Part shown: positions 863-63,872 of the stretch, in pieces
How positions within the stretch are numbered: position 1 is the first letter of the stretch
Layout: every line of letters begins with the position of its first letter
Origin: Eledone cirrhosa
Lineage: Eukaryota
NCBI GenBank assembly: GCA_964016885.1
Contig: OZ024743.1
Span: 175,026,001 to 175,090,000 of the forward strand
Direction of reading: 5' to 3'
DNA length: 64,000 nt
Position numbers and translations under genes: made by a program
Notes under the pieces: generated by a model
Databases searched by the model: none
What the model was told of the DNA's origin: nothing
What the model saw: the letters and a program-made list of their open reading frames with translations, nothing else

Positions 863-1270
863 ATATATATATATATATACACATTCAACAGAGAGTAGAG
901 AGTTTGACAACAGGTCAATGACTTTAGTCTAGATAGGGTAATGACATGTGATGGTGGGGAGAGAGTGTAGAAGTTATTGTGGTGGCGGGGGACAGTGAAA
1001 TGTATCTAGTTCATTTGACCGTTTTCTTCTCTTTGTAAAATTTGAATTTTAGCCATTGAGATGTAAGTAAATGTAAAATGTAAAATATAAATAAGGATTG
1101 CTCTGCTAAAATATACTAAAATATTTGTGTAACTTCCACAAACTTCTGTCGTGACATTCCCGAGTCCAGTGACCAACAAATTGTTGTATTTTGATGTTTC
1201 AGAATACAAAAATTAATTAAAAACTTACCCCACGAAAAGACAGCGTGTGTTGTCCATCTATAAGCTCCCT

Positions 1271-2510: not shown

Positions 2511-4681
2511 GGAAGATGATTCTATTAGTAGAAGTGGGGGAGGAAGTTGTGTGTGTGTGTGTATATGGGTGTTATGTGTGTGTGTGGTAGTATGTTAAGA
2601 TGGAGTGAATATATATATTTTGTGTGTGTGTATATATGTGTGTAGGAAAGTGATTCTATTAGTAGAAATGGGGAGGGAGTTGTGTGTGTCTGTGAGGGTT
2701 GGGGTTGTTATGTGTGTATTGGGTGTTATGTGTGTGGGAGTATGGTTAGTATGTTAAGATGAAGAGAATATATATATATATTGTGTGTGTGTGTGTGTGT
2801 GTAGGAAAATGATTCCTTTAGTAGGAATATTTTTGAATGAACATATTTTCCTTACTTATTCGTATTTGTTCTGTTGTATTGTCAGCGCAAAGGTAAAATG
2901 GGAAGACTTGGAATTTGGGTGTCTTATTACTTGCGCAAATGTCTAGATGTGCGCTTAGTGGTATCTGTCTCGTGGTTGGATCTCGTAATTGTTGGCGATG
3001 AACTATCATTCTGTTTCTGAGTGTGAGTTTAGTTTGTCCTATATAATCTTCATTGCATCCTTTACATTTAATGGCATAAATTAAATTTTTTGATGAGCAA
3101 GTGAAGTGATTTTTTACAGCAAAATTTTGTCCTGATTTAAATGTATACGTGTTGCCTTCAATGAGGAGAGTGCAGGTTCCACAATTAGAGCGACCACATT
3201 TTTTGACAGTTGGTTGTGGGTTTGTGGTAGGTAATTTGGCATTGGTGAGTAATGTTTTCAGTGATTTCGGTTGTCTTTTGCTTTTGATTATTTTGTGTGT
3301 TTCAAGGGCTTTTTTCATTCTTGGGTTTTGTTTTAGTAGTGGGATGTTATTGTGAATAGTGTTGTAAGCTTCCACATTTCTTGGGTTGTGTGTTGAGATA
3401 TATGATAGAATATTGGACGTACCTTGAATTTGTTTCTGTTTTCGTAATTCATCAATGCCTATTGCTTTAGCCCTTCCTATTCCATTATTTATTAGTAATG
3501 GTGGGTACTCTCTTTCGAGTAGAATTTCCTTTAATTCTTGAAGACTTTTATTTCGCGTTTCATAATTGGAGACAATTGTGCAAATTCTTCTTGCTAGGTT
3601 AAAAGGAATGTTCGTCTTCGTGTGCTTTGGATGGTTGGAGGTGAATAGCAGGTATTGTTTGGAATCTGTTGGTTTGTAGTGTATGTCAGTTTCAATATTT
3701 GTGTCTTTTTTTAAGATTAAGATGTCCAGAAATGGGAGTTGATCTTGGCTGTATTCCATTGTGAATTGGATGTGGTTATTGATGCCGTTTATTAAGTTTT
3801 TGAAATCCTTCAGTTGGTTGAGTGTGTGGGACCAAAGAATGAGACAATCATCCAAGTAGCGTTTCCAATTCTCTGATAAATATTTGTGGAAGTTCAATCT
3901 GTATTTTGATTTGGACTGTTCATATATCTGAACTTCTAAGTATGCCATGACTAAGTTGGCATAAGTTGGAGCGGCTTTTGTACTCACCGCAGTCCCCGAT
4001 ATGTGCTTGTAAGTACTGCTATCGAAATCAAAAAAGCACACAAGCACACAAATAAACATACATATCTTTACTTTCTTTATTTTAATAGAAAATCTGAATT
4101 CTGACACCCCAGCGAACTAACCATATTCACTGAACGAGAACAATTCTCCCATCCCATTTCTCTTGACCATTATCTTTTGCTTGTCATAAAATTCTCTAAA
4201 AAGGCAACAGAATAGATTTCCAAACAAGGGCGCGAAAATTTAATGAAAAATTGTTCACGTGACAGCTATAATTTCATTTATAACCAATCAAATTACGTTT
4301 ATTTAAAAAAAAGCCTTCGTGAGCCCCTTTTTTAAGTAAAAAGAAATTCAAACACTCATATATGAAAAAACAACCTGTGCCACCCCCACCCCCCTTGTTT
4401 GAAGAAGTTTGTAACGCGAACTGGCGCGTAATTTATTATAATTATTGACCAACCAATCAAATTACTTCTCTAAAAACCTGGCATTTCGAGCCACTTTTTT
4501 TCCATATAAAACAAGTAACATTCAGAGACCAACCAGATGTGAGAAAAACCACAGACCCTCCATCTCAACTCTACTTTTGAAAAGCAGAAGAACTGCGAAA
4601 CCGGTAAAGGAACCACATAAATATATATATTTAAAAAAAAATAAGACTCCAGTTGCATTTTCGATTTCATCTTTGTTCTTT
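1990..4681 (-). mobile_element. 5'-truncated Neptune-like PLE with 3' pLTR (~1990-2420) and inverted 5' pLTR copy (~4030-4681)
   Basis: 4030-4096 and 4375-4681 are the reverse complement of ~2055-2420. Flanked by (TA)n on both sides; encloses an RT/GIY-YIG frame. Confidence 0.85.
2818..4020 (-). pseudogene. PLE RT C-terminal half, thumb, Cys linker and GIY-YIG endonuclease (Neptune-like)
   Basis: GTAVSTKAAPTYANL, WKRYLDD, LPFLDI, YKPTDSKQYL, CGRSNCGTC, NLIYAIKC..CNEDYIGQT..LRNRM..H. The N-terminal residues of the listed ORF come from the inverted pLTR. Confidence 0.88.
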
Positions 4682-8723: not shown

Positions 8724-8785
8724 TTTTGTCTGAGGAAGGCATACCATATTTTTAATATGATATCCCAGAAATATATATAATGAAA
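8724..8785 (+). ncRNA. Minimal type I hammerhead ribozyme motif (CUGAGGA core), inverted pLTR copy
   Basis: TTTTGT CTGAGGA AGGCATAC CATATT TTT AATATG ATATCCCA GAAA TATATA TA ATGAAA. Confidence 0.65.
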
Positions 8786-12570: not shown

Positions 12571-14784
12571 CTACATTTTAAATTTAAATTTATATTTAAA
12601 CGTTGAGTTTAATCTATGTTTGCAACAACTGAATAAATTTGTCCGTAGGTTAAGGGAATTTTTAGATTTTAGTATAAAGAATATCTCCTCTGCGCAGAGG
12701 TCACATGTCTCAGAGGATGAATTAAAAGGAATCCCTCTTGAGACTATATTCCAAGCCGTCGAATATCTAACGTTATCTAGCTTAAGTTGCCAGAGTACGC
12801 CTGATAGTGCCGTTGAAGATTTTTTACTTGGATCTGTGAAAGAAATCTTGTGGTTATTATAGCGAAGTTTAAATTCCGTCGATGTGGAACCGACGTAGTT
12901 AAACGAATTAGAGTCAGTATTAACATTACAAATGTATACTATATTTTTAACTAAGCAGTTGTTATTTAACGGACATTTAGATCTATCTCTACAGTTACAT
13001 TTGTTAACTTGTATATTATTTATGCTATTATCACTAGGTTTTAAGTTCCTATTATTTATTCTATTAATATTTTGTGCTAAATTTTTGGTGGATGAGTAGG
13101 TTAATTTAATTGTATGCCTATTGAAAATTGAGTGATACCTATGTGTTCTAGGGAAGCGATTATCAAGAGCTTTGAAAAATAATTTAGCGATGTGGGTTTT
13201 AATGTTTAGTGAGAAAGGGGGGGCAAACCAAATTATGTTCCTAGTTCTATTTCTTTTTTGGCCTTTGGAATTATTGTAATGCTTTCTATTATAGTTGTTA
13301 ATGTTGTTGCCGTAATTAAAAAAGTTGTTACTTTGTTTAGTTTGTCTATCATTATCTATGTACACAATCTTATCAGCATATCCTGCCCTAGCTAATGCTT
13401 CATTATAGTATTGGGCCTTTTCGTTGAAAATCTTTCTATTCGACGAGATCCTAGAGATACGTTTTTGAACTGAGTTTACTATAGTGTTTTTGACAGATCT
13501 GGGGTGGTTAGAGTTAAAGTTGACATAGTTTAAGTTTTCATTCAACTTGTGAAAAGGATAGTGGAGACATGTGTTGAGATTTAATGTTATATCTAGGAAA
13601 TTGACTATTCTATGGTTGTTCTCAATTTCTATTTTAAGGTTAAAGTAATTAAAAAATTTTGTAATTTGTTTACATTTTCTATTTAGTTCAGGGTTATTAT
13701 TATTAATAAGTAAAAGCATGTCATCCCTATATAAACCTCCGGTAGTACCAGGTATTTTCCTATGTAGCGAATTGATTAAAAATAAGCCCACAAGGTCAGT
13801 TACCTGAGCTGAGTCGGAAGATCCCATAGTTATGTCAAAATTGCTATCTCTATCTGCTCTGGTCCATAATTTGTCATTAAATTCTATCAAAGTTTTCCTA
13901 GCCGATAATATAATATGCATTTCTTTGCTAGTTAGGTCAGTATGTTTGAATGCGTAATTTAGTGCCTTATTTAGTAGACTAGGGGTAATAGAAGAATAAT
14001 AGTTAGCTATATCAAGTTGAATAAACCTATTATTATTGTTATATTTAATTTGCCTAAACCACTCAACAACCTCTCCAGTTCCCTTCCACAAGCTCAGGTT
14101 AGATACACAATCCAAGTTCTTAATTTGCTGTATCACCCTGTCAAGAATGTTTTTGCTTAACTTGCCCAGGTCCGATTTTGAAGGTGCGATCAATCTAACT
14201 GGCAGGTCATTTTCAAAATTCCTCTTGTGGTCCTTCATATTGATCTTCGGTTTCCTGGGCACGAAAGGTTGTGTTCTGTTCTCAATTTCCAACTCGTGCA
14301 TTATACAAGATGCTTCGACATTCATTTTCTCAAGTTCGGCCTTATCTGCTACCTTGTACTTTTTCCTCAGCTCTTTCAGTATGAGGCCATTATACATGTC
14401 TTTCCGCACTCCATAGAGGTTGTTGGTCTTGTCAGATTTCACCAAGATCTTCTCAGTTTTCTCTAAGCTCTCAATGTTATCCTTAATGCCTTTCAGATAT
14501 TCCTGGCCTTTGAAGTTTCTCTTGAATTTGACCCCTTGTATGATAGAAATTATATCGTTTTCAAAGTCAGATAAAAGTTTGTTAGGGGGTGGATTTCTTT
14601 TAGATTTGAAAACTTTGTTTAAGTCCGAGACATTTTCGTCTGCATTAGATTTATCAAAGTGGAATGCACGCCACCTGATTCTCCTTATAAAAGAGTCAGA
14701 TTTATCTATTAATTGTTTTATAAAGTCTTTGTTTCTAGGTAGAGGTATGTCTTTTAGAGAGGAAGTAATCTTAAAGAATTCCAT
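12571..14784 (-). CDS. PLE (Naiad-like) polyprotein: reverse transcriptase and GIY-YIG endonuclease, 737 aa, uninterrupted
   Basis: SLKDIPLP..FIRRIRWRAFHF, KSDKT, KDHK, QLDIANYYSSI, TMGSSDSAQV, YRDD, NFLDITL, SNHP, CNCR..CPL..C, IVYIC..YVGST..FKLRYNNH, CDLC..E. Confidence 0.95.
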   Translation of the reverse strand: MEFFKITSSLKDIPLPRNKDFIKQLIDKSDSFIRRIRWRAFHFDKSNADENVSDLNKVFKSKRNPPPNKLLSDFENDIISIIQGVKFKRNFKGQEYLKGIKDNIESLEKTEKILVKSDKTNNLYGVRKDMYNGLILKELRKKYKVADKAELEKMNVEASCIMHELEIENRTQPFVPRKPKINMKDHKRNFENDLPVRLIAPSKSDLGKLSKNILDRVIQQIKNLDCVSNLSLWKGTGEVVEWFRQIKYNNNNRFIQLDIANYYSSITPSLLNKALNYAFKHTDLTSKEMHIILSARKTLIEFNDKLWTRADRDSNFDITMGSSDSAQVTDLVGLFLINSLHRKIPGTTGGLYRDDMLLLINNNNPELNRKCKQITKFFNYFNLKIEIENNHRIVNFLDITLNLNTCLHYPFHKLNENLNYVNFNSNHPRSVKNTIVNSVQKRISRISSNRKIFNEKAQYYNEALARAGYADKIVYIDNDRQTKQSNNFFNYGNNINNYNRKHYNNSKGQKRNRTRNIIWFAPPFSLNIKTHIAKLFFKALDNRFPRTHRYHSIFNRHTIKLTYSSTKNLAQNINRINNRNLKPSDNSINNIQVNKCNCRDRSKCPLNNNCLVKNIVYICNVNTDSNSFNYVGSTSTEFKLRYNNHKISFTDPSKKSSTALSGVLWQLKLDNVRYSTAWNIVSRGIPFNSSSETCDLCAEEIFFILKSKNSLNLRTNLFSCCKHRLNSTFKYKFKFKM

Positions 14785-14870
14785 TTTTCCAGTTATAATA
14801 TAAAGCGCTCAACAGTATTGGAGCAAGATACATGGAAAGTTATATTTAAAATATATATATATATAGAAGA

Positions 14871-15339: not shown

Positions 15340-15382
15340 AATATTTGATAAGGTTGTTATACGAACCGAAATCGGTTATATT
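15340..15382 (+). ncRNA. Minimal hammerhead with U3-A8 core variant
   Basis: AATAT TTGATAA GGTT GTTATACG AACC GAAA TCGG TT ATATT. Confidence 0.6.
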
Positions 15383-18153: not shown

Positions 18154-18438
18154 AGAAGCAAACAATTGCTTATTGTGATCCACTTACCAATGAAACGGTC
18201 GTAAATACCTGGATTAAATCCTTCTCTTAATGCTTACCTGTGTTTTCTCTTTTATACTTTATACTCCAAGATTGAACGGAATTCTTACAAACTTGTGGAG
18301 TTACCCCTAACCGTACGTTGAAACCATCCATGAAACTGGCTTTCTTAACCAAAAACTGGATCACAATAAGCAATTTTTTGCTTCTCTAACTACAGGCTCC
18401 TTATCGGTCGAGCAACCACCTAAACATACGGTACTACT

Positions 18439-20791
18439 ATGGAAAAGCATTACATAGGTATGTCCCTAAAGAACATTCCTATACCTCGGAGAAAGGATTA
18501 TACTCTCGGGATGATACAGCGAACAAACGACTTTATACGCAGAGTTAGATGGAAAACTTTCCATTTCGACAAAGGACGTAATGGTCGCACCGTGGAATAT
18601 AACAAGGAAACATACGGCTTCAAATCGTGTAAAAACCCACCTACCAACCCTCAACTGGATGCCTTTGAACAGGACTTACTGAAGATGATTATGAATATCA
18701 AATTCAAAAAGTGGACCAATAATAAACTCCAGAATGACATAAATACATTCATAGAAAAGCTGCGAACCACCAATGGAATTATTGTCAAAGCGGACAAAAC
18801 ATCAAATGTGTATACGATGGATGTTAATACATACAATAGCTTCATACGGAAGGAATTACATAGGAAATACAAAAAACAAATGAGGCGGCACTGATTAACA
18901 TCAACAACGAGGCACACAATATAGTCAAACACCTAGGAATAGACGACAGAACGGAGCCACTTAAGCCATGTACCCCCACATTTAACCTCAAGGACCACAA
19001 GGTAAATTTTGATTATAACCCCACTATTAGACTTATATGCCCGTCCAAATCGGACATCGGGAAAATTAGTAAACATATATTAGACAGAGTGATAGCACAA
19101 ATGAAGAATAAACTAGTGATTAAACTATGGGGTAACGCTACCGAAACAATTAAATGGTTTAACAATATAGCTAACAAGGAAGTATCTAAATTTATACAAT
19201 TTGACATTAACGATTATTACTCATCTATATCCCCAACACCTTGGATAAAGCCTTAGCATTCGCCAAAGCCAATTCTGACATAACAGACAACGAGATAAAA
19301 ATCATATTAGCTGCTAGGAAAACAATAATTAAATTTGAAAACGCCTATTGGGAACGTAAGGATAGATTAAATAACTTTGACATCACGATGGGGGCTAACG
19401 ACTCAGCTCAAGTCACAGACTTAGTAGGTATTTACATAGCCCATAGTTTGCAAAGCGAGTTTAGCGACCTTCACGGTGGAATCTACAGAGACGACGCCCT
19501 TCTAGTTAAGAACCTAAATAACCAGAGCATAGAAAGACTCCGTAAGAATATTAGAAAGACTCTCGGAAAACTAGACCTTAGCATAACGTATGAGTATAGC
19601 ACTAAAACAGTTAACTTTCTAGATGTGACGCTTAACCTAAATACGGGACTTATAAGACTTTTTCACAAGATTAATGAAAACTTAGCATACATCAACTGTA
19701 ACTCAAACCACCCACTATCAATAATTAAATCCATTCCACGCAGCATATCCCTTAGGATCTCCCGCCTCTCATCTAACCGTCAAATCTTCGAAGAACATGC
19801 AGAATACTACAATACCGCATTAGACAAGGCAGGCCACTTAGATAGAGTAGAATATATAGATGAAAGCCTCTGTGAAGCACACACGAACACGCATAACACA
19901 AACTCCAGAAACACACGCATACACACATTTACGCATAGAACTGCAAAGTATACGGCAAATAGAAGTACAACATCGAAATCAAACAAGTCACGCAGTAGAA
20001 AATATATTTGGTATAACCCCATATTTAACACCTCTATTAGTACTAACCTACCCTCTACTTTCTTTAGAATAATAAATAGGCACTTTCCAGATTCACATAG
20101 ATACAGCAAAATCCTTAACACTAAATCTATTAGACTATCCTACTCCACGGCACCAAATATAGAGGCACACATTAAGATGCTTAACGCTAAAAAGATACAT
20201 AACAACACCAAAACACAAATTTACAACAATAACAATACAATTACCACCGAACACAACAGAATATCTAATACACAACCACCCGCTAATAGGCAAACAAAAC
20301 GTAACACACTTGTTCAGGCATCGCAGCCCACAAATAATGCCAAAGTTGCCCATAACAAGAAATGTAACTGCCACCTACCTGAAACCTGTCCATTACAAAA
20401 TGAATGTATGCAGTCTAACCTGGTTTACCAATGCACAGTGGAATCAGACAACCAGAAATGGTATTACATCGGAGCGACTGGGAATACTTTTAAAGCTCGT
20501 TGGTATACACACCGTTACGCAATGAAACATTCCCAGCACTGTTATGTAACTACCCTTGCAAACAAGACCTGGCAACTGAGGGAAAGTAACCATCAATACA
20601 CCCTGAAGTGGAAAAAATTATCGAACGCGCCCCCATATCGGAGTGGTATGAGAAGCTGTCGATTATGCGACCTTGAGCTGTTCCACATTTTGAGTTCGAA
20701 GAATAGGTTACTCAACAATAAAATTGAGAGATCAATTTATTGTAACCATAGACTCAAAGAGAAATTTTCGCACTACAAATCGAACCCTTAA
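18439..20791 (+). pseudogene. Naiad-like RT+GIY-YIG ORF with two frameshifts (~18875, ~19240)
   Basis: SLKNIPIP..FIRRVRWK; the intermediate frame reads FNLKDHK..RLICPSKSDIG..QFDINDYYSSI; then TMGANDSAQV, YRDD, CNCH..CPL..C, YYIGAT, CRLCDLE. Confidence 0.92.
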
Positions 20792-21507: not shown

Positions 21508-21609
21508 TATTTTGAAAATTTGGACTGTGAACAACAATTATAATTGAGTGGCTGCTATTTGCAGCATAGCAATATAAGGTTGCACTTACCAATGAAACGG
21601 TCGTAAATA
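21508..21609 (+). ncRNA. Hammerhead with U3-A8 core and branched stem II insertion, in the 3' pLTR
   Basis: TATT TTGAAAA T TTGG [65 nt] CCAA T GAAA C GGTC G TA AATA. Confidence 0.65.
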
Positions 21610-22199: not shown

Positions 22200-23162
22200 G
22201 CTTTTATGTTTCCTCCCGTTACATTGTATGCCTACGCCATCTTTATTTAGTATGCTTATTTATTTATTTATTCGTTTTTGTTTTTTTTTGTCTTCTCTGC
22301 GCATGCGCTAGCGTGTGTGTATAATGTTTTGTTTGATGTGTGTTCGTGTTTGGGTGACTGTGTATTGGTTATTGTATTCTATCTTAGTTTACTAGTGTGT
22401 GTTTATATGTGTTTGTTGTTATTGTGCTTGTGTATTTATTTATTTATTTATTTATACTTCTCTTAGGTCAGTGTTGTTTGTTTGGGCGTTGTTGTTATTC
22501 CATTCATTTTTTTTGTTTAGTCTTGGCCTTCTAAGTTCTATTTCGCTGGCCTCTCTGATTTGCATATCTGCTGGGTCATTTCTATGTTTAGATATTATTC
22601 TAATTTCTATGTTGTCTATGTTACCGTCGTGTTGTTGTCTGGCATGTTCGTATAGTACTGAACCGTTTTTTCGTCCTTTTAGTTCCTCCCAGTGTTGGTC
22701 TATCCTTTCACCTATGCTACGAGCTGTTTCACCTCTGTATGTTGTTGTCATGTTTCTGCAAGTACCCTCTGTACATCTTATGCTATAGACTACGTTTCTA
22801 GTTTTACAGTTTATCCGGGGGTTTACTTTACATATGATACATTTCCTATTAGTACAGTAGGTTTTCTTAAAAGGGTAGGTTTTGCTGATCAGGGATTTTA
22901 TGGTGGTTCCTGGCTTTTCTACCACCTTAATCTTTAAGTGGGTCTTTCTCAGGGCCTTTCTACACTGGTTAGCTAATTTCCCTCCAGGGGTAGCGTCCAC
23001 AAACATGACACTCTGGTTGCGTACCATGAGGTGGCTTTCCCTATCTTATGTCTAGTCCTATCTAAGCTATTCCATGATTTGCTCCTGTATAATGGGCAAA
23101 TTCCTTTCATGTCCAGTTCTATGAGGGTCTTATACTTCTCCGTGGCTCCTTCGTATACTCTC

Positions 23163-24447
23163 CCAAAATGAGGGAGAAGCCATTGGCGTCAGCATAGCTG
23201 GTGTTGTTGCCAACCTTTTTATGGTATGGTGGGAAAGGAGACTTAAAGATCTCCTGAATGAGAGCTCCATAGACCTCATCATGTACTCTCGTTACGTAGA
23301 CGACATCAATATAGTTATAAGAATATCCCCACTAGAGAGCACTAACAAGTTTGATTTAGAACGTAGCACAATGGAAAGCATCCAGCAGATAACTAATTCC
23401 ATACACCAGAGTATAACTGTAACTATCGACTACCCTTCCAAACACCCTAACAATAGACTACCCGTATTAGACACGGAACTCTGGATTAACACTATAGACG
23501 AGAGAGCCCAAATTCTCCACTCACACTATGCTAAACCCATGGCCTCCAAATACCTGATACTCAAAAACACAGCAATGTCCAGTAGTGCTAAGTTTAATAT
23601 TCTGATCGCAGACTTGGTACGAGTGATCAAGAACGTGTCCCGCATGTGCGACCTAACAGAAATGGAAAGACACATCCAACACTTCATCAACCGCATGCAG
23701 TTTTCTGGCTACAACCAAAGAGACAGAATCAGAGTATATGAAGGAGCCACGGAGAAGTATAAGACCCTCATAGAACTGGACATGAAAGGAATTTGCCCAT
23801 TATACAGGAGCAAATCATGGAATAGCTTAGATAGGACTAGACATAAGATAGGGAAAGCCACCTCATGGTACGACAACCAGAGATACCAGAGTGTCATGTT
23901 TGTGGACGCTACCCCTGGAGGGAAATTAGCTAACCAGTGTAGAAAGGCCCTGAGAAAGACCCACTTAAAGATTAAGGTGGTAGAAATGCCAGGAACCACC
24001 ATAAAATCCCTGATCAGCAAAACCTACCCTTTTAAGAAAACCCACTGTACTAATAGGAAATGTATCATATGTAAAGTAAACCTCCGGATAAACTGTAAAA
24101 CTAGAAACGTAGTCTCTAGCATAAGATGTACAGAGGGTATTTGCAGAAACATGACAACAACATACATAGGCGAGACAGCTCGTAGCATAGGTGAAAGGAT
24201 AGACCAACACTGGGGGGAACTAAAAGGACGAAAAAACGGTTCAGTACTATACGAACATGCCAGACAACAACACGACGGTAACATAGACAACATAGAAATT
24301 AGAATAATATCTAAACATAGAAATGACCCAGCAGATATGCAAATCAGAGAGGCCAGCGAAATAGAACTTAGAAGGCCAAGGCTAAACAGAAAAAATGAAT
24401 GGAATAACAACACCCAAACAAACAACACTGACCTAAGAGAAGTATAA
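23163..24447 (+). pseudogene. 5'-truncated PLE RT core/thumb and GIY-YIG (Nematis-like; clade call tentative)
   Basis: GEAIGVSIAGVVANLFM, YSRYVDD, VTIDYPS..LPVLD, YAKPMAS, CTNRKCIIC..CKTRNVV, YIGETARS..ERIDQH. Confidence 0.88.
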
Positions 24448-25849: not shown

Positions 25850-28800
25850 ATTAATAGAGCACAATAGACAATAGAGCACAATGTACTATTAATGTAGACA
25901 ATATACTATTAATGTAGACAATATACTATTAATGTAGACAATATACTATTAATATGGACAATATACTATTAATATAGACAATATACTATTAATGTAGACA
26001 ATATACTATTAATGTAGACAATATGCTATTAGTGTAGAGAACAATGTACTATTAATGTAGACAATATACTACTAATGTAGACAATATACTATTAGTGGAG
26101 ACAATATACTATTAATGTAGAGAATATACTATTAATGTAGAGCACAATGTACTATTAATGTAGACAATATACTATTAATGTAGACAATATACTATTAATG
26201 TAGACAATATACTATTAATGTAGAGCACAATGTACTATTAATGTAGACAATATACTATTAATATAGACAATATACTATTAATGTAGACAATATACTATTA
26301 ATGTAGAGCACAATGTACTATTAATGTAGACAATATACTATTAATTTAGACAATATACTATTATTGTAGAGCACAATGTACTATTAATGTAGACATACTA
26401 TTAATGTAGACAATATACTATTAATGTAGACAATATACTATTAACGTAGACAATATGTTATTAGTGTAGAGCACAATGTACTATTAATGTAGACAATATA
26501 CTATTAATGTAGACAATATACTATTAATGTAGAGCACAATGTTTTATTAATGTAGACAATATACTATTAATGTAGACAATATACTATTAACGTAGACAAT
26601 ATACTATTAATGTAGACAATATACTATTAATGTAGAACACAATGTACTATTAATGTAGACAATATACTATTAATGTAGAGCACAATGAACTATTAATGTA
26701 GACAATATACTATTAATGTAGACAATATACTATTAATGTAGACAATATACTATTAGTGTAGAGCACAATGTACTATTAATGTAGACAATATAATATTAAT
26801 GTAGACAATATACTATTAATGTAGACAATATACTATTAGTGTAGAGCACAATGTACTATTAATGTAGACAATATACTATTAATGTAGACAATAAACTATT
26901 AATGTAGACAATATACTATTAATGTAGAGCACCATGTACTATTAATGTAGACAATATACTATTAATGTAGACAATATACTATTAATGTAGAGCACCATGT
27001 ACTATTAATGTAGACAATATACTATTAATGTAGACAATATACTATTAATGTAGACAATATACTATTAATGTAGAGCACAATGTACTATTAATGTAGACAA
27101 TATACTATTAATGTAGACAATATACTATTAATGTAGACAATATACTATTAATGTAGACAATATACTATTAATGTAGAGCACAATGTACTATTAATGTAGA
27201 CAATATACTATTAATATAGACAATATACTATTAATGTAGACAATATACTATTAATGTAGAGCACAATGTACTATTAATGTAGACAATATACTATTAATTT
27301 AGACAATATACTATTATTGTAGAGCACAATGTACTATTAATGTAGACATACTATTAATGTAGACAATATACTATTAATGTAGAACACAATGTACTATTAA
27401 TGTAGACAATATACTATTAATGTAGAGCACAATGAACTATTAATGTACACAATATACTATTAATGTAGACAATATACTATTAATGTAGACAATATACTAT
27501 TAGTGTAGAGCACAATGTACTATTAATGTAGACAATATACCATTAATGTAGACAATATACTATTAGTGTAGATCACAATGTACTATTAATGTAGACAATA
27601 TAATATTAATGTAGACAATATACTATTAATGTAGACAATGTACTATTAGTGTAGAGCACAATGTACTATTAATGTAGACAATATACTATTAATATGGACA
27701 ATATACTATTAATATAGACAATATACTATTAATGTAGACAATATACTATTAATGTAGACAATATGCTATTAGTGTAGAGAACAATGTACTATTAATGTAG
27801 ACAATATACTACTAATGTAGACAATATACTATTAGTGTAGACAATATACTATTAATGTAGAGAATATACTATTAATGTAGAGCACAATGTACTATTAATG
27901 TAGACAATATACTATTAATGTAGACAATATACTATTAATGTAGACAATATACTATTAATGTAGAGCACAATGTACTATTAATGTAGACAATATACTATTA
28001 ATATAGACAATATACTATTAATGTAGACAATATACTATTAATGTAGAGCACAATGTACTATTAATGTAGACAATATACTATTAATTTAGACAATATACTA
28101 TTATTGTAGAGCACAATGTACTATTAATGTAGACATACTATTAATGTAGACAATATACTATTAATGTAGACAATATACTATTAATGTAGACAATATGTTA
28201 TTAGTGTAGAGCACAATGTACTATTAATGTAGACAATATACTATTAATGTAGACAATATACTATTAATGTAGAGCACAATGTTTTATTAATGTAGACAAT
28301 ATACTATTAATGTAGACAATATACTATTAACGTAGACAATATACTATTAATGTAGACAATATACTATTAATGTAGAACACAATGTACTATTAATGTAGAC
28401 AATATACTATTAATGTAGAGCACAATGAACTATTAATGTAGACAATATACTATTAATGTAGACAATATACTATTAATGTAGACAATATACTATTAGTGTA
28501 GAGCACAATGTACTATTAATGTAGACAATATAATATTAATGTAGACAATATACTATTAATGTAGACAATATACTATTAGTGTAGAGCACAATGTACTATT
28601 AATGTAGACAATATACTATTAATGTAGACAATAAACTATTAATGTAGACAATATACTATTAATGTAGAGCACCATGTACTATTAATGTAGACAATATACT
28701 ATTAATGTAGACAATATACTATTAATGTAGAGCACCATGTACTATTAATGTAGACAATATACTATTAATGTAGACAATATACTATTAATGTAGACAATAT

Positions 28801-31800
28801 ACTTTTAATGTAGAGCACAATGTACTATTAATGTAGACAATATACTATTAATGTAGACAATATACTATTAATGTAGACAATATACTATTAATGTAGAGCA
28901 CAATGTACTATTAATGTAGACAATATACTATTAATATAGACAATATACTATTAATGTAGACAATATACTATTAATGTAGAGCACAATGTACTATTAATGT
29001 AGACAATATACTATTAATTTAGACAATATACTATTATTGTAGAGCACAATGTACTATTAATGTAGACATACTATTAATGTAGACAATATACTATTAATGT
29101 AGACATTATACTATTAACGTAGACAATATGTTATTAGTGTAGAACACAATGTACTATTAATGTAGACAATATACTATTAATGTAGACAATATACTATTAA
29201 TGTAGAGCACAATGTTCTATTAATGTAGACAATATACTATTAATGTAGACAATATACTATTAACGTAGACAATATACTATTAATGTAGACAATATACTAT
29301 TAATGTAGAACACAATGTACTATTAATGTAGACAATATACTATTAATGTAGAGCACAATGAACTATTAATGTACACAATATACTATTAATGTAGACAATA
29401 TACTATTAATGTAGACAATATACTATTAGTGTAGAGCACAATGTACTATTAATGTAGACAATATACCATTAATGTAGACAATATACTATTAGTGTAGATC
29501 ACAATGTACTATTAATGTAGACAATATAATATTAATGTAGACAATATACTATTAATGTAGACAATGTACTATTAGTGTAGAGCACAATGTACTATTAATG
29601 TAGACAATATACTATTAATGTAGACAATAAACTATTAATGTAGACAATATACTATTAATGTAGAGCACCATGTACTATTAATGTAGACAATATACTATTA
29701 ATGTAGACAATATACTATTAATGTAGACAATATACTATTAATGTAGACAATATACTATTAATGTAGACAATATACTATTAATGTAGAGCACAAGGTACTA
29801 TTAATGTAGACAATATACTATTAATGTAGACAATATAATATTAATGTAGACAATATACTATTAATGTAGACAATATACTATTAATGTAGAGCACAATATA
29901 CTATTAATGTAGACAATATACTATTAATGTAGACAATATACTATTAGTGTAGAGCACAATGTACTATTAATGTAGACAATATACTATTAATGTAGACAAT
30001 ATACTATTAATGTAGAACACAATGTACTATTAATGTAGACAATATACTATTAATGTAGAGCACAATGAACTATTAATGTACACAATATACTATTAATGTA
30101 GACAATATACTATTAATGTAGACAATATACTATTAGTGTAGAGCACAATGTACTATTAATGTAGACAATATACCATTAATGTAGACAATATACTATTAGT
30201 GTAGATCACAATGTACTATTAATGTAGACAATATAATATTAATGTAGACAATATACTATTAATGTAGACAATGTACTATTAGTGTAGAGCACAATGTACT
30301 ATTAATGTAGACAATATACTATTAATATGGACAATATACTATTAATATAGACAATATACTATTAATGTAGACAATATACTATTAATGTAGACAATATGCT
30401 ATTAGTGTAGAGAACAATGTACTATTAATGTAGACAATATACTACTAATGTAGACAATATACTATTAGTGTAGACAATATACTATTAATGTAGAGAATAT
30501 ACTATTAATGTAGAGCACAATGTACTATTAATGTAGACAATATACTATTAATGTAGACAATATACTATTAATGTAGACAATATACTATTAATGTAGAGCA
30601 CAATGTACTATTAATGTAGACAATATACTATTAATATAGACAATATACTATTAATGTAGACAATATACTATTAATGTAGAGCACAATGTACTATTAATGT
30701 AGACAATATACTATTAATTTAGACAATATACTATTATTGTAGAGCACAATGTACTATTAATGTAGACATACTATTAATGTAGACAATATACTATTAATGT
30801 AGACAATATACTATTAATGTAGACAATATGTTATTAGTGTAGAGCACAATGTACTATTAATGTAGACAATATACTATTAATATAGACAATATACTATTAA
30901 TGTAGAGCACAATGTTTTATTAATGTAGACAATATACTATTAATGTAGACAATATACTATTAACGTAGACAATATACTATTAATGTAGACAATATACTAT
31001 TAATGTAGAACACAATGTACTATTAATGTAGACAATATACTATTAATGTAGAGCACAATGAACTATTAATGTAGACAATATACTATTAATGTAGACAATA
31101 TACTATTAATGTAGACAATATACTATTAGTGTAGAGCACAATGTACTATTAATGTAGACAATATAATATTAATGTAGACAATATACTATTAATGTAGACA
31201 ATATACTATTAGTGTAGAGCACAATGTACTATTAATGTAGACAATATACTATTAATGTAGACAATAAACTATTAATGTAGACAATATACTATTAATGTAG
31301 AGCACCATGTACTATTAATGTAGACAATATACTATTAATGTAGACAATATACTATTAATGTAGAGCACCATGTACTATTAATGTAGACAATATACTATTA
31401 ATGTAGACAATATACTATTAATGTAGACAATATACTATTAATGTAGAGCACAATGTACTATTAATGTAGACAATATACTATTAATGTAGACAATATACTA
31501 TTAATGTAGACAATATACTATTAATATAGAGCACAATGTACTATTAATGTAGACAATATACTATTAATATAGACAATATACTATTAATGTAGACAATATA
31601 CTATTAATGTAGAGCACAATGTACTATTAATGTAGACAATATACTATTAATTTAGACAATATACTATTATTGTAGAGCACAATGTACTATTAATGTAGAC
31701 ATACTATTAATGTAGACAATATACTATTAATGTAGACATTATACTATTAACGTAGACAATATGTTATTAGTGTAGAACACAATGTACTATTAATGTAGAC

Positions 31801-34800
31801 AATATACTATTAATGTAGACAATATACTATTAATGTAGAGCACAATGTTCTATTAATGTAGACAATATACTATTAATGTAGACAATATACTATTAACGTA
31901 GACAATATACTATTAATGTAGACAATATACTATTAATGTAGAACACAATGTACTATTAATGTAGACAATATACTATTAATGTAGAGCACAATGAACTATT
32001 AATGTACACAATATACTATTAATGTAGACAATATACTATTAATGTAGACAATATACTATTAGTGTAGAGCACAATGTACTATTAATGTAGACAATATACC
32101 ATTAATGTAGACAATATACTATTAGTGTAGATCACAATGTACTATTAATGTAGACAATATAATATTAATGTAGACAATATACTATTAATGTAGACAATGT
32201 ACTATTAGTGTAGAGCACAATGTACTATTAATGTAGACAATATACTATTAATGTAGACAATAAACTATTAATGTAGACAATATACTATTAATGTAGAGCA
32301 CCATGTACTATTAATGTAGACAATATACTATTAATGTAGACAATATACTATTAATGTAGACAATATACTATTAATGTAGACAATATACTATTAATGTAGA
32401 CAATATACTATTAATGTAGAGCACAAGGTACTATTAATGTAGACAATATACTATTAATGTAGACAATATAATATTAATGTAGACAATATACTATTAATGT
32501 AGACAATATACTATTAATGTAGAGCACAATATACTATTAATGTAGACAATATACTATTAATGTAGACAATATACTATTAGTGTAGAGCACAATGTACTAT
32601 TAATGTAGACAATATACTATTAATGTAGACAATATACTATTAATGTAGAGCACAATGTACTATCAATGTAGACAATATACTATTAATGTAGAGCACAATG
32701 TACTATTAATGTAGACAATATACTATTAATGTAGACAATATACTATTAATGTAGACAATATACTATTAATGTAGAGCACAATGTACTATTAATGTAGACA
32801 ATATACTATTAATGTAGACAATATAATATTAATGTAGACAATATACTATTAATGTAGAGCACAATATACTATTAATGTAGACAATATACTATTAATGTAG
32901 ACAATATACTATTAATGTAGACAACATACTATTAGTGTAGAGCACAATGTACTATTAATGTAGACAATATACTATTAATGTAGACAATATACTATTAGTG
33001 TAGAGCATAATGTACTATTAATGTAGACAATATACTATTAATGTAGACAATATACTATTAATGTAGACAATATACTATTAATGTAGACAATATACTATTA
33101 ATGTAGAGCACAATGAACTATTAATGTAGACAATATACTATTAATGTAGACAATATACTATTAATGTAGACAATATACTATTAATGTAGAGCACAATGTA
33201 CTATCAATGTAGACAATATACTATTAATGTAGAGCACAATGTACTATTAATGTAGACAATATACTATTATTTTAGACAATATACTATTAATGTAGACAAT
33301 ATACTATTAGTGTAGAGCGCAATGTACTATTAATGTAGACAATATACTATTAATGTAGACAATATACTATTAATGTAGACAATATACTATTAATGTAGAC
33401 AATATACTATTAATGTAGAGCACAATGTACTATTAATGTAGACAAAATACTATTAATGTAGACAATATACAATTAATGTAGACAATATACTATTAATGTA
33501 GACAATATACTATTAATGTAGACAATATACTATTAATGTAGAGCACAATGTACTATTAATGTAGACAATATACTATTAATGTAGACAATAAACTATTAAT
33601 GTAGACAATATACTCATAATGTAGACAATATACTATTAATGTAGACAATATACTATTAATATAGACAATATACTATTAATGTAGAGCACAATGTACTATT
33701 AATGTAGACAATATACTATTAATGTAGACAATATACTATTAATATAGAGCACAATGTACTATTAATGTAGACAATATACTATTAATATAGACAATATACT
33801 ATTAATATAGACAATTTACTATTAATGTAGACAATATACTATGAATGTAGACAATATACTATTAATGTAGACAATATACTATTAATGTAGACAATATACT
33901 ATTAATGTAGAGCACAATGTACTATTAACGTAGTCAATATACTATTAATGTAGACAATATTCTATTAATATAGACAATATACTATTAATGTAGACAATAT
34001 ACTATTAATGTAGACAATATACTATTAATGTAGACAATATACTATTAATGTAGAGCACAATGTACTATTAATGTAGACAATATACTATGAATGTAGACAA
34101 TATACTATTAATGTAGAGCACAATGTACTATTAATGTAGACAATATATTATTAATGTAGACAATATACTATTAATGTAGACAATATACTATTAATATAGA
34201 CAATATACTATTAATATAGACAATATACTATTAATATAGACAATATACTATTAATGTAGACAATATACTATTAATGTAGACAATATGCTATTAGTGTAGA
34301 GAACAATGTACTATTAATGTAGACAATATACTATTAATGTAGACAATATACTATTAGTGTAGACAATATACTATTAATGTAGAGAATATACTATTAATGT
34401 AGAGCACAATGTACTATTAATGTAGACAATATACTATTAATGTAGACAATATACTATTAATGTAGACAATATACTATTAATGTAGAGCACAATGTACTAT
34501 TAATGTAGACAATATACTATTAATATAGACAATATACTATTAATGTAGACAATATACTATTAATGTAGAGCACAATGTACTATTAATGTAGACAATATAC
34601 TATTAATTTAGACAATATACTATTATTGTAGAGCACAATGTACTATTAATGTAGACATACTATTAATGTAGACAATATACTATTAATGTAGACAATATAC
34701 TATTAATGTAGACAATATGTTATTAGTGTAGAGCATAATGTACTATTAATGTAGACAATATACTATTAATGTAGACAATATACTATTAATGTAGAGCACA

Positions 34801-35999
34801 ATGTTCTATTAATGTAGACAATATACTATTAATGTAGACAATATACTATTAATGTAGACAATATACTATTAACGTAGACAATATACTATTAATGTAGACA
34901 ATATACTATTAATGTAGAACACAATGTACTATTAATATAGACAATATACTATTAATGTAGAGCACAATGAACTATTAATGTAGACAATATACTATTAATG
35001 TAGACAATATACTATTAATGTAGACAATATACTATTAGTGTAGAGCACAATATACTATTAATGTAGACACTATACTATTAATGTAGAGCACAATGTACTA
35101 TTAATGTAGACAATATACTATTAATGTAGACAATATACTATTAATGTAGACAATATACTATTAGTGTAGACAATATACTATTAATGTAGACAATATACTA
35201 TTAATGTAGAGCACAATGTACTATTAATGTAGACAATATACTATTAATTTAGACAATATACTATTATTGTAGAGCACAATGTACTATTAATGTAGACATA
35301 CTATTAATGTAGACAATATACTATTAATGTAGACAATATACTATTAATGTAGACAATATGTTATTAGTGTAGAGCATAATGTACTATTAACGTAGACAAT
35401 ATACTCTTAATGTAGACAATATACTATTAATGTAGAGCACAATGTTCTATCAATGTAGACAATATACTATTAATGTAGACAATATACTATTAATGTAGAC
35501 AATATACTATTAACGTAGACAATATACTATTAATGTAGACAATATACTATTAATGTAGAACACAATGCACTATTAATGTAGACAATATACTATTAATGTA
35601 GAGCACAATGAACTATTAATGTAGACAATATACTATTAATGTAGACAATATACTATTAATGTAGACAATATACTATTAGTGTAGAGCACAATATACTATT
35701 AATGTAGGCACTATACTATTAATGTAGAGCACAATGTACTATTAATGTAGACAATATACTATTAATGTAGACAATATACTATTAGAGTAGACAATATACT
35801 ATTAATGTAGACAATATACTATTAATGTAGAGCACAATGTACTATTAATGTAGACAATATACTATTAATGTAGACAATATACTATTAATTTAGACAATAT
35901 ACTATTAATGTAGACAATATACTATTAGTGTAGAGCACAATGTACTATTAATGTAGACAATGTACTATTAATGTAGACAATATACTATTAATGTAGACC
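25850..35999. repeat. Satellite array, left block: 20-mer ACTATTAATGTAGACAATAT mixed with 23-mer ACTATTAATGTAGAGCACAATGT
   Basis: About 10 kb of tandem units. Confidence 0.98.
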
Positions 36000-36297
36000 T
36001 GTAGCAGTAAATAAATATATACTTATTTGTAATTAAATGTATTTTCTTTCTGTGGAAGAATTATGCTACGGAGGTACATTGGCTGAAGTGTGAGCCAATC
36101 AAAACCTTCGGCGGAGCGATACGAGTTACTGGACTACTTAGTCCAGATAACGTAAGTGAACTCAGAGAGAATTGAGTCTCCGGAAATACTTGCTCGCGTC
36201 AACACGTCAATTCCATGCTTATACCACGAATAAATGGAATTACATATTTATAATGGATATCTACTAACACTTGCAGCGACATATAATCTTCATTATA
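36000..36297 (+). repeat. 5' LTR
   Basis: TGTAG...TTATA; 36111-36297 matches 40316-40567 apart from two deletions. Confidence 0.88.
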
Positions 36298-37060: not shown

Positions 37061-37853
37061 ATGGGTAGCACCACATTGCCAGCATTTGCCGGCGATGTCC
37101 GTGTTTGGTTCGCTCAGATGGAATCGCATTTTACTGCGAACATAACGTCTGAAGTCAGACAGTTACACATTCTCTTGAGTGCTTTTCTGGCGTCATTGAC
37201 AACTGTTGTTAAGGATTTGATAACTGATCCGGCCCCTGGAGCCACCTATGAGAGCGTAAAACGCGAGGTTTTGCGGCTGACCACGCTGTCCGCTGAGAAA
37301 AAAATTCCAGACCCTCGTCAATAACGAACATTTGGGTAATAGGATACCCAGCCAGCTTCTGCGTCGGATGAGAGAGCTGGTGGAGGATGCCCCAGCTGAC
37401 AGCGCCCGCCTTCGACAGCTTTTCCTTTCAAGGCTGCCGCCCAGTGTTCAGGCGATTTTAACGCCTAAGATGGAAGCTACCTCAGTCGACCAGCTCGCGT
37501 CTTCGGCCGACAAAATTATGAGTTACACCGGAAAGCCTGCCTCCTTTGCTACACCTCAGCCGCCGGCTGCGGACTCTTCGTTCTCTCCAACGGCTGCCGT
37601 CCACACCGATCAGTCGCTTGCGTCTGTGGCAATACTTCAAGCCATAGAGAAACTCAAAGAGGTGAGAAAATTGCGTACCTCTAGGGCTCAATCGCCCAGA
37701 CGTCGCTTCCAGAGCCGTTCGCCCTCGCCACGCCGCCGCCACACAAGCAAGCCAGGACTGTGCTACTACCACAGCCGTTTTGGCGCGGCGGCACGCTCTT
37801 GTAAACAGCCCTGTTCGTTTTCCATCCAGGGAAACGGATTTCAGGAGACCTGA
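37061..37853 (+). pseudogene. Gypsy gag, frameshifted at the A-run ~37300
   Basis: LPAF..DVRVWFAQMESHF, PSQLLRRMREL, QLFLSRLP, CYYHSRFGAAARSCKQPC. Confidence 0.88.
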
Positions 37854-37879
37854 GCACGGCACAGTCTCCTCTGACGATC

Positions 37880-40315
37880 CCAAATAATTGTGCATTCTTC
37901 ATAACAGATACGGATTCCCAAGCACGTTGTTTGGTTGACACAGGCGCCGCTTGCAGCATATGGCCGTTAAAACTTCTCAGAGAAGCCACCACTTTCACCC
38001 ATATCTCTGCAAGCTGTAAATCATTCACTGATCCCCAGGTATGGTTAAATTTCTCGTTCTTTGAACCTGGGATTGCGCAGAGACTTCACGTGGATATTCA
38101 CTGTCGCCGATCTGCCTTACCCTATTCTAGGCTCGGATTTCCTGCACCACTATAACCTTTTAGTGGATATGCGCAGACACCGGTTGTTGGATGCGAACAT
38201 GGAACTGTCCGTCCCGGGTATGAGATCGACTATCAGCCCGGTTTTCTTTATCGTCGCTTCAGAAGATCCTTTTCAGGCGCTGTTACATTCCTTCCCAGAA
38301 TTGACCAATTTAAATTTTGTGATGGGTAAGCCTACTGTCAACAAAACACTACATTGAGACATCTGGTGCTCCTGTGTTTTCACGCCCTACCCGCCTCCCT
38401 GCGGAGAAATTGAAAGTGGCGAAGGCTGAATTCAACCACATGCTGCAGCTTGGGATCATACGCCCATCCTCAAGTCTGTGGGCCACTCCTTTACATTTGG
38501 TTCCGAAGCGTTCCGGTGATTGGCGTCCCACTGGGGACTTTCGCCGGTTAAACGCAATGACGGTACCCGATCGCTACCCGATCCCACACATACAGGATTT
38601 CGCGTCTTCGCTTCACGGAAGTAAGACATTCTCCAAATTGGATTTGGTCAAGGCTTACCACCAGATTCCAATGAACCCGGCAGATATACCTAAAACTGCT
38701 GTAACAACTCCTTTCGGAGCGTTCGAATTTCTGACTATGACTTTCGGTTTGCGAAACGCAGCCAGTACTTTCCAACGTTTCATGGATGACGTTGTGCACG
38801 ATTTGGACTTCGTGTATAACTACATTGATGACATTCTCGTGGCAAGTGCCTCACCCGAGGAACATGTCACTCACCTCCGTCTACTGTTTTTAGCTGTTTC
38901 AGCAGTATCAGGTGCGAATCAACCCGGCGAAATGTGTTTTCGGTGCGTCTTCACTTGTCTTCTTGGGCCACGTTCTCAGCCCTGAGGGAATCTCACCACT
39001 GCCTGACAAAGCGAAAGCTCTGCAAGACCTTCACCCACCCACTTCACGTCGACAGCTACGACATTTCCTTGGTCTACTGAACTACTACAGACGTTTTATC
39101 CCACACTGTGCGGATCTCCTGTCTCCCCTGTCCGACCTGTTACGTAACAGGAAAAAGAAAAATGAATCAATCACACTGGACACGAGTCAGCTAAAAGCCT
39201 TCAACGAAGTGAAGCAGAAACTTGCGGAGACATCGTTACTTGCACATCCTGTGTCTGGTGCCCAGTTTTCACTGGTCGTTGATGCATCGGGCACAGCTGT
39301 AGGTGCAGTGTTGCAACAGCATCACCAACAACAACTACAACCTCTCGCGTACTTCTCGAGACAACTGAAACCTGCAGAAACAAGATATAGCACATTCAGC
39401 CGTGAACTCCTGGCTATGTACCTCTCAGTGAAACACTTTCGGCATGCAGTGGAGGGTCGACAATTTGCGATCTAAACGGATCATCGTCCGCTTATGTTCG
39501 CACTGCGTTCTAAGCCGGATAAATATTCACCTCGCGAAACTCGTCACTTGGATTTCGTTTCGCAATTTACCAGTGATATCCGACACATCTCCGGTGAACA
39601 GAAAGCGGCGGCAGATGCCTTGTCTCGCCTCCCAATCAATTCCCTGTCATCACCTCCGGATATTGACCTTCAACGGATGGCCACAGAACAGCCACCTCTG
39701 GATACCTTGTATCTCTCGTCGCCTGAATTTGCAACTGGCAAATTTTCATATCTACCTGTGCCCACTTCGGACACAGATTATTTGCGACACCTCGACAGAT
39801 TCACCTCGTCCCCTAGTTCCAGTGACTCATCGTCGAGCTGTTTTCGATACCTTGCACGGTCTGGCACACCCCGGAATCTCGACCACAGTGAAGTTCATTT
39901 CGGCTAGATTCCTCTGGCCGAATGAGACGTAACATCACTGCCTGGATACGTTCCTGCTTATCCTGCCAGAAGTTAAAGGTGCACAAACACATCCGCGCAC
40001 CTCTCGGAACTTTCAGCACTCCAGACGCTCGGTTCAGTCATGTCCATATAGATCTCGTTGGACCATGGCCGGTCAGCCAAGGATTTACATATCTCCTGAC
40101 CTGTATAGATCGCTTCACACGTTGGCCTGAGGCCATTCCTTTAAGCGACATTTCGGCGGAATCTGTATCGCGAGCCCTAGTATCGGGTTGGATATCGCGT
40201 TACGGAGTTCCAACTACTGTCACCACCGACCGTTTCGAATCCCATCTCTTCCGAGAACTTTCAAGGATCCTAGGAATTAAGCGCATCCGAACGACTAGCT
40301 ATCATCCAGCCTCGA
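37880..40315 (+). pseudogene. Gypsy pol (protease, RT, RNase H, truncated integrase) with several frameshifts
   Basis: [84 protein letters not shown]. Confidence 0.93.
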
Positions 40316-40567
40316 GCGGAGCGATACGAGTTACTGGACTACTTAGACCAGATAACGTAAGTGAACTCAGAGAGAATTGAGTCTCCGGAAATACTTGCTC
40401 GCGTCAACACGTCAATTCTTCGATACAGATCAATCTTTTCTTGTCGTTATACCAATTCCATGCTTATACCACGAATAAATGGAATTACATATTTATAATG
40501 GATTTCGTCGTTATTTTATGCTTTCTGAATCTACTATCACTTGCAGCGACATATAATCTTCATTATA
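40316..40567 (+). repeat. 3' LTR lacking its first ~110 bp
   Basis: Fused directly to integrase sequence (..YHPAS); no polypurine tract, implying an internal deletion. Confidence 0.88.
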
Positions 40568-62289: not shown

Positions 62290-62326
62290 GTATATATATA
62301 TATGTATATATATATATGTATATATA

Positions 62327-63600
62327 GGAACCAGTAAGACCCCGACAGCTGAGCTCAAGCCGTTTCGACGGCTAATTCTGGACTAAATGAAAATTTATCC
62401 TGGTATTTAAATAGCCGATCTTCTCAAGGGGTAATTCCATATATGGTCAAAGTGATTGTCAAAAATCAGTAGTAATTCTGTGGTTGCAAATTAGTAGGGG
62501 AGATGGTGGCTAAACCTGCCAGCAGGAGAAAGAGGGGAGGGGGTGGAGTAGACCCAATCAAGCGTTGGTAGTGCCAGCTACAGCTGGGCATGAGGTCAAA
62601 GAAGATACTGGGGAGGGGGAGGGAGAGGAAGTCGGAACGGTAGGTAGAACGATGGGGGGTAGAAATATATAGGAAAACAAATACTGAGAGTGAAGAAAAG
62701 CAAATAAGTGTAAAGAAAAAAGTAAAGTAAATTCTACGACCTAGGTCTCTAGCTATTGTTAGGCTAGAATAAATAAATAAAGAAAGAAAGAAAGAAGTAA
62801 AGAAAGAAATAAAGAAATAACGAAATAAGTAAAAGAACTAGGTGGGACGAAATAGGCAAGGACCCTTTTAAGAGGTATAAGTACGTAAATGATACGGTGA
62901 CGGGTCAACAAAAGGGGCCAAAATACTAAAGAGACTACCACGAAATAAACAATAAAGGTTTCCATCCCGGGCACAATGCCAGCAACCACCCAGTGCAGCA
63001 AAGTGAACTAGTACGAGATAATAATTCTGAGTCCCGAGAAAAATATATACTAATGCTAACTCTAAAAGATCTAAAACAAGCTACATGAAAGTTCGTACGA
63101 AGTAAAGGTAGAATACGGAAAAATAAATTCAGAATCCACCCCGCCCAAAAGAAAAGCGAAGAAAGAAATACTGAAACGAAAAAATAAGGCATAAGTGCCA
63201 CTAAGAAATATAGAGGGCACAGAGAATAGTGGGAGCGGTCGGAAAAAGGGGACAAGTATCCGGGGTCTAAACCCACTACTATAAAAGGCGGAGTCCGCCA
63301 AATCTATCATAGACTAGGGGAGGGGGTGGGGGTACTAAGGCTACAAGGGGCCAAAGGGCAGCCTCGGGTGGGCGAGAAAAGACGCCGACAAAGGAGAAGA
63401 GCTGGGGTAGAAGGACTAAGGAGAGAGGGGGGAAGGAAATAAAGGAAGCGATAAAAGAATACAAAGAAGATCTTACGTCTCCCTTGGCAAGCAGGGGTTA
63501 CCCATTGCAAAATCGGCAAGTGGGGTGTTATAGCCCTAGTCTACCCCCCCCCCCCCCGGGTCATTATGGGGTTTGAGGGCGAGGTAAGTCCTACGCAATC
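62327..63600 (-). mobile_element. Non-coding PLE 3' UTR/pLTR remnant
   Basis: Pyrimidine-rich minus strand ending in an HHR and then (TA)n; its terminus is repeated at 63761-63815. Confidence 0.6.
62339..62432 (-). ncRNA. Type I hammerhead with U3-A8 core and GUC cleavage site
   Basis: ACCCC TTGAGAA GATCGGCTA...TAGCCGTC GAAA CGGC TTGAGCTCA GCTG TC GGGGT. Confidence 0.85.
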
Positions 63601-63872
63601 TAGAACTGTTTCATTCATCTGAATGAAACAGTTCTAGTCCTGTAGAAGCTCCTTCTATACAATAAATATATATATATATAACGAAGGAAATGTGGTAAGG
63701 AACCAGATTGACCATAACGCACCAAAGTACTCAATACTTAGGGTAGTAGAGTGGGTAATAGGAACGAGTAGGACCCCGACGGCTGAGCTCAAGCCGTTTC
63801 GACGGCTAATTCTTGACTGAGTCGGGGTCCTACTCGTTCCTATATATATATATGTATATATATATGTATATA

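Follow-up and report, generated by a model that had tools for sequence, protein, structure and literature searches.

A U3-A8 hammerhead and its C·A and U·G sister subfamilies in a putative Hydra-clade Penelope-like element of Eledone cirrhosa

The window analysed here is a 64,000-nucleotide stretch of Eledone cirrhosa DNA (contig OZ024743.1, positions 175,026,001 to 175,090,000), near one end of which the minus strand carries a hammerhead motif within a truncated Penelope-like element (PLE). An earlier reading, made from the sequence alone, had proposed such a hammerhead with U3-A8 in place of C3-G8, and each of the hammerhead elements it named was found at its place on the minus strand:

62327..63602, minus strand: 5'-truncated copy of the host element, delimited by blastn and tblastn against a full unit (locus L063)
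62327..62438, minus strand: hammerhead with its distal stem I extension, terminating at the +17 insertion end beside (TA)n
62432-62339, minus strand: type I hammerhead, a three-stem junction open at stem I, by descriptor match and fold
62438-62434 with 62331-62327, minus strand: distal stem I extension GGAAU / GUUCC, by sequence
62432-62428 / 62343-62339, minus strand: stem I strands ACCCC / GGGGU, by sequence
62427-62421, minus strand: core strand UUGAGAA, positions 3-9, with U3 at 62427 and A8 at 62422
62420-62412 with 62374-62367, minus strand: stem II, by sequence
62366-62363, minus strand: GAAA core strand, by sequence
62362-62359 with 62349-62346, minus strand: stem III CGGC / GCUG, by sequence
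62346..62362, minus strand: stem III and its loop, a near-palindrome around GAGCUC, by sequence and cofold prediction
C62344, minus strand: GUC site with predicted cleavage 3' of this base; (TA)n starts 17 nt past the site
62358..62373, minus strand: competing 6-bp hairpin around CGAA, a predicted inactive fold from partition-function folding

The window copy has U4 G5 A6, A9, G12 A13 A14, A15.1-U16.1, H17 and G10.1-C11.1 all in place, and its Watson-Crick 3-8 pair is U3-A8. A descriptor permitting any base at positions 3 and 8 recovered the motif, and a strict descriptor gave two matches in the window, at 62427 and 15345. The minimum-energy fold of the copy is the hammerhead, with stem probabilities of 0.98/0.76/0.75 by partition-function folding. 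Stem III is 4-5 bp long with a loop of 7-9 nt and loop 2, of about 37 nt, contains an inner hairpin. The stem III near-palindrome can, on modelling, either close as a hairpin or pair two copies, and the CGAA hairpin is predicted to hide the catalytic GAAA. Of the alignment cells in the stems 96.7% are paired, as compared with 26-58% when partners are slid. Two-sided covariation of the stems in 14 close copies is at chance level (115/500 shuffles). The A-U pair that had been placed at the base of stem II was not kept; the base varies between A, U and C from one subfamily to another and we therefore treat this position as an internal loop.

Repeat-rich DNA might produce such a motif by chance, and in keeping with this the fold gains no extra stability over shuffled sequences (z -0.47; 60/200 shuffles as good) and the Rfam hammerhead models gave no match on 62300-62470 even at E 10. 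However, no match as strong as that at 62427 occurred in 30 locally shuffled windows, the site lies in a pseudo-LTR, where PLE hammerheads belong, and the stems are conserved across subfamilies. Position and conservation refute a chance look-alike, to which we give next to no weight. The claim that the motif is invisible to CUGANGA searches holds for the whole family, missed by CUGANGA descriptors and Rfam alike.

By its motifs the host appears to be a Hydra-clade PLE carrying the hammerhead in its pseudo-LTR. The fetched loci comprise head-to-tail units of 3,118 and 3,523 bp as well as inverted pairs, and one unit (L063) holds a stop-free 786-codon frame (P0001) whose first methionine is residue 69. 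Since a Pfam search of the 786-codon protein gave no match, its domains were read from motifs, namely RWR, DKT, CNCPDRSIC (the CxCx5C linker), CNLC (CxxC) and CKH (CxH); the Hydra clade is described as having an RWK-like motif, DKT, a CxCx5C linker and CxxC plus CxH around a conserved E and N (PMC8557442). Pseudo-LTRs, tandem or inverted, flank a single ORF with a reverse transcriptase (RT) followed by a GIY-YIG-type domain at the C-terminus, a tail is present, and the insertion target is (TA)n. As far as sequence can tell, the host element is young and autonomous. Within L063 (3379-3582) the frame is also open for 68 codons before the first methionine, running back through the cleavage site. 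The window copy retains the last ORF codons (63601-63557), about 1.1 kb of 3' UTR and the pseudo-LTR. At its 5' end lies a short hairpin (63604-63666), an arm of which matches the terminal 27 nt or so of another small hammerhead-like element, and this match suggests a chimeric insertion.

Next to this copy the sequence-only reading had seen a partial second copy (63773-63808) that converts the stem III G·U to G-C. The G-C pair is indeed there but it belongs to a separate insertion from another subfamily:

63681..63840, minus strand: separate 160-nt insertion from a sister subfamily, with its own closing (TA)n

This insertion has an inverted 20-nt end, the 3' half of a hammerhead (63808-63773) without the 5' core, and a tail to +97. 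Because stem III G-C is the majority state in 9/10 subfamilies, the G·U of the window copy is the odd one out; the difference is one-sided and therefore not covariation. In the fetched loci L001-L030 most insertions of the family are tiny hairpins (about 170-200 nt), in which two hammerhead 3' halves in inverted orientation are flanked by (TA)n runs; their breakpoints cluster in stem II and loop 2.

Copies of the motif in the 3.0-Gb host genome were counted by pattern searches. Its 3' half has 31,789 exact matches and its 5' core 4,940, with 0 for the reversed control in both cases. Of these 4,940 copies, U3-A8 accounts for 3,626 and an unpaired C3·A8 for 1,229; a purine at position 3 occurs in 29, and A8 is absent from 56 (30 U3·G8, 4 C3-G8 and 22 with C8 or U8). 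A Watson-Crick 3-8 pair is found in 73% of the copies and missing from 1,310/4,940. Paralogues are thus not mostly C3-G8 or unpaired, the outcome that the earlier reading had set against itself, yet a quarter of them are unpaired C·A sisters, and these likely kept spreading. One old subfamily has U3·G8 in 16/18 copies and A8 in none, and has its own ORF, of which decayed pieces are 60-85% identical to P0001.

No C3-G8 subfamily was found in the family among the anchored copies, by a looser search or with a variant anchor. The looser search gave 15 C3-G8 matches genome-wide, 13 of them family members, and the 11 that could be placed on the tree are scattered. A C3-G8 ancestor subfamily, suspected from three copies, was rejected when the variant anchor returned 2/83 C3-G8 copies and mostly C3·A8. 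With this subfamily absent, the family shows no visible compensatory double change, and the description of U3-A8 as compensatory finds no support there, given also the 1,229/4,940 copies with unpaired C3·A8.

To follow the 3-8 states by descent, 147 distinct full copies were sorted by diagnostic words, which placed 132 of them in 10 subfamilies. A tree of the pseudo-LTR was built from 39 copies, up to 4 per subfamily and of the majority state only, over a short alignment of 173 columns with positions 3 and 8 masked. It gives a path through U·G, old U-A, C·A and young U-A that takes three single-base changes, and the window copy belongs to the young U-A group. On this masked tree a single U-A clade was rejected (p-AU 3e-5), as was a single C·A clade (p-AU 8e-26), for subfamily groups that were named after viewing an earlier tree. 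An independent tree of the ORF 3' end, for which 32/147 copies were long enough and from which old U-A copies are absent, has the young U3 subfamilies (99/96) nested in a grade of C·A copies and places the U·G subfamily outside. A 3'-UTR tree was set aside as it retained 11/81 copies.

Copies of the U·G subfamily diverge from their subfamily majority by a median of 6.2%, old U-A copies by 5.5%, those of the four C·A groups by 2.4-3.4% and those of the young U-A groups by 0.7-2.1%. The direction of change, U·G first and young U-A last, is read without an outgroup from this fall in median divergence along the path. The C·A subfamilies appear to lie on the trunk, with the old U·G and U-A copies to one side of them and the young U-A group to the other. 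Their ORF stretches are long, about 90% identical in protein to P0001 and with few stops, so that C·A copies were likely autonomous. We consider it a shade better than even that the main descent of the living lineage went through U·G and then C·A (four subfamilies, more than 1,200 full copies) with the other catalytic bases fixed.

The rest of the motif changed little across the 10 subfamilies. The majority base differs at 2/42 positions of the core and stems, in each case by a C to U change that gives G·U, as against 44/81 loop and upstream positions (p 1e-8). The fixity of the 5' half is partly an artefact because copies were fetched by anchors in it; at the 11 structural positions outside the search anchors 1 changed. 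Positions 3 and 8 both changed among subfamilies, as did the free N7, while the other nine core bases and C17 are unchanged, the 5' ones partly by search anchor. To judge from these alignments, the fold and nine core bases were held while 3 and 8 moved.

The insertions have two fixed ends past the cleavage site. Of 70 copies, 30 end at +17 and 31 at +97, in a sample biased, like that of the arm lengths, toward copies with an intact 3' half; the same two (TA)n junctions were seen in contigs from three runs of unrecorded kind. A clean break at the cleavage site was found in 0/191 arms of this biased sample, in which two arms scored zero owing to local changes and a third has an internal deletion that ends beside the site. 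Since ends lie past the site and clean breaks are absent, the copied RNA probably had its site intact, either uncut or re-ligated. Among copies found by their 3' half, homology breaks off before the core in 35/42, mostly 8-32 nt upstream of G12. A peak of arm lengths at 53 nt was rejected as a truncation point and reflects divergence from the reference subfamily.

Folding predictions were compared between subfamilies as well. The GAAA-hiding hairpin has a predicted median probability of 0.01-0.72 in the U-A subfamilies and 0.03-0.85 in the C·A ones; the idea that it is special to C·A copies was rejected, as it is also predicted in U-A subfamilies. Cofolding, run without a control, favours two copies joined via the palindromic stem III over separate monomers by 11-17 kcal/mol, and the minimum-energy dimer holds the hammerhead core in 8/10 groups folded.

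The closest known systems share parts of this picture. The Cercyon PLE hammerheads of Schistosoma mansoni are, as here, type I motifs in a pseudo-LTR with U3-A8 and a palindromic helix III, in elements that occur as close opposite-strand pairs and are mostly truncated; about 1,300 U3-A8 matches were reported in Schistosoma, and PLE hammerheads were described as slow and dimeric (Cervera & De la Peña 2014, PMC4209133). Those hammerheads are minimal, in contrast to the 4-5 bp helix III with its 7-9 nt loop and the roughly 37-nt loop 2 found here, and the present family also differs by its Hydra-clade host and by whole subfamilies that are C·A or U·G. Hydra-clade PLE hammerheads described by Craig et al. 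(2021, PMC8557442) share the host type, the (TA)n target, a stable stem III and the position at the end of the 3' UTR, but 26/26 Hydra and Repbase rows in their file S2 are CUGANGA (C3-G8) and their units are generally below 3 kb, compared with about 3.5 kb here. Natural U3-A8 covariation was also described, as rare, by Perreault et al. (2011, PMC3088659), whose text names no natural C3·A8 or U3·G8 lineage. Our literature search for C3-A8 or U3-G8 hammerheads found no report, several key core-variant papers being outside its scope. The U3-A8 hammerhead motif is real and had been read correctly as that of a PLE, and the U3-A8 pair itself is a known variant.

In a full double-mutant scan of a type III hammerhead only the G3-C8 swap rescued the 3-8 pair (PMC9901934), and U3-A8 may therefore be weak here too. 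As reported by Frangieh et al. (2024, PMC11167929), the hammerhead of the lizard PLE Anolis Poseidon needed protein in order to cut, mutants without activity could still insert in vitro, reverse transcription begins at an internal point of the RNA and the uncut RNA serves as template. Insertions of Poseidon, as here, have two fixed ends past the hammerhead site (the 'tail'), although its core is canonical C3-G8, its tail is 30-40 nt rather than the 80 nt found here, and it belongs to another clade; in the present family too the template site would be intact, uncut or re-ligated. The role of hammerheads in endonuclease-bearing PLEs has been called 'still unclear' (PMC8557442).

Taken together these data lead us to favour, with moderate confidence, a slow ribozyme, helped by dimerisation or by protein, in which the fold is under selection and fast cleavage is not critical. 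U3-A8 would stand in for C3-G8 and let the RNA cut itself after C62344, probably slowly and with help from a second copy or from the element's protein, and cleavage would not be needed for each insertion. Reverse transcription would begin past the site, on RNA that is uncut or has been re-ligated, and would often break off in stem II. The lineage may have passed from U·G to U-A to C·A and back to U-A while amplifying, under selection that held the three-stem fold and the other core bases and tolerated long spells without a Watson-Crick 3-8 pair.

Cleavage could instead be essential. The mismatched cores, C·A and U·G, would then be rescued in the cell, whether through a wobble or a protonated C·A+ pair within a fold bound by protein, or in trans through a dimer partner whose own core is paired. 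The invariance of the nine other core bases and C17 is hard to explain without catalysis, and the return of the lineage to U-A, the hammerhead-core dimer being the minimum-energy form in 8/10 groups and the protein help reported for a PLE hammerhead (PMC11167929) would all fit. Against such a rescue, single changes at 3 or 8 abolish or strongly lower activity in the published work (PMC11167929, PMC9901934), though the lizard study made C3G and G8C and not C·A; C3-G8 revertants stay scattered (15 matches) although one transition restores the canonical pair; and the dimer energies lack a control. We think essential cleavage unlikely, while granting it real weight.

Another possibility is that the fold has no catalytic activity and is retained solely to mark a place for the element's protein or for the start of reverse transcription. 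Amplification of the mismatch subfamilies to at least 1,229 full copies, insertion ends beyond the site and the success of Naiad PLEs, which thrive without hammerheads (PMC8557442), speak for it. But the catalytic bases are all intact, the 3-8 pair is Watson-Crick in 73% of the copies and was regained in the youngest subfamilies, and we regard a dead fold as quite improbable. If the main descent did run through U·G and C·A, either PLE retrotransposition would have no need of fast self-cleavage, or the element's protein or a dimer partner would rescue a core that is almost dead in vitro.

U3-A8 alone is not new, and the value of follow-up lies in those subfamilies along the line of descent that are C·A or U·G. 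In this family four core states occur naturally on a scaffold that hardly varies, each with its copy number and relative age, which allows cleavage rate to be compared directly with spreading success; the genome holds in effect a natural series of dated alleles, by which nature has tested whether cutting matters. The family would also record how a tertiary base pair changed in nature via unpaired steps.

Two further U3-A8 hammerheads of the window had been named by the earlier reading, and both prove to represent real families:

15340..15382, plus strand: U3-A8 hammerhead, minimal in form, from an older and unrelated repeat family, with copies 81-87% identical
21508..21609, plus strand: U3-A8 hammerhead in the pseudo-LTR of a second Hydra-type element, with its ORF at 18436-20767

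For the first (core at 15345) the exact pattern matches only itself; BLAST gave 699 candidates of which 47 matches were scored, and UUGAUAA is present in 13/17 aligned paralogues and C3-G8 in 0. The tie of this family to a PLE ORF is weak. The second was found only by a relaxed descriptor; its site is GUA and its stem II begins with a U·U pair at the base; its family (core at 21512) has 1,467 matches to the 3' half, with UUGAAAA in 11/16 rows, 4 others being truncated or rearranged and 1 having C8. Over the window the relaxed descriptor tallies 8 C3-G8 and 3 U3-A8 sites.

A genome sample of 60 evenly spaced 10-kb pieces (600 kb) gave 57 matches, 33 of them C3-G8 (0.1 expected by chance) and 16 U3-A8. 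Nine of the 16 come from one minisatellite (L248), leaving 7 against 1.7 by chance; U3-A8 thus makes up 7/40 of the paired-core matches kept. At least two more U3-A8 families, each repeated, were seen in this sample (L243:2380 and 2975; L272; two sites in L259). U3-A8 is a real minority class in this genome. The three families had been taken to point to a large overlooked class, and while U3-A8 families do exist, 'large' does not suit 7 matches against 33 C3-G8 in 600 kb, and 'overlooked' is overstated because U3-A8 was already published in PLE hammerheads (PMC4209133) and as a natural variant (PMC3088659). A fast, fully compensated U3-A8 ribozyme representing a large unrecognised class is accordingly very unlikely. 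The five or more U3-A8 families in the genome and a stem III long enough for a monomer would suit it, but the minority standing of U3-A8 and the unpaired quarter of the family do not, and 'unrecognised' is refuted by the two papers.

Three more Hydra-type PLE ORFs of the window, at 12571-14808 (minus), 18436-20767 (plus) and 3-873 (minus), are 37-54% identical to P0001, the first being a stop-free 745-codon frame missed by Pfam. PLE fragments of other clades lie at 2818-4116 (minus), with a GIY-YIG match, and as an inverted pair at 22452-24447. A uniform stretch of about 10 kb at 23% GC without long ORFs (26000-36000) is probably a tandem array, and 37281-40380 (plus) is a broken pol region of an LTR retrotransposon with RT, RNase H and integrase matches. 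The eight C3-G8 hammerheads of the window, at 8730 (plus), 7292 and 11076 (minus), 24621, 25043 and 25467 (minus), 58950 (plus) and 59512 (minus), form three further families, and by extrapolation the 33 C3-G8 matches in 600 kb correspond to about 160,000 genome-wide.
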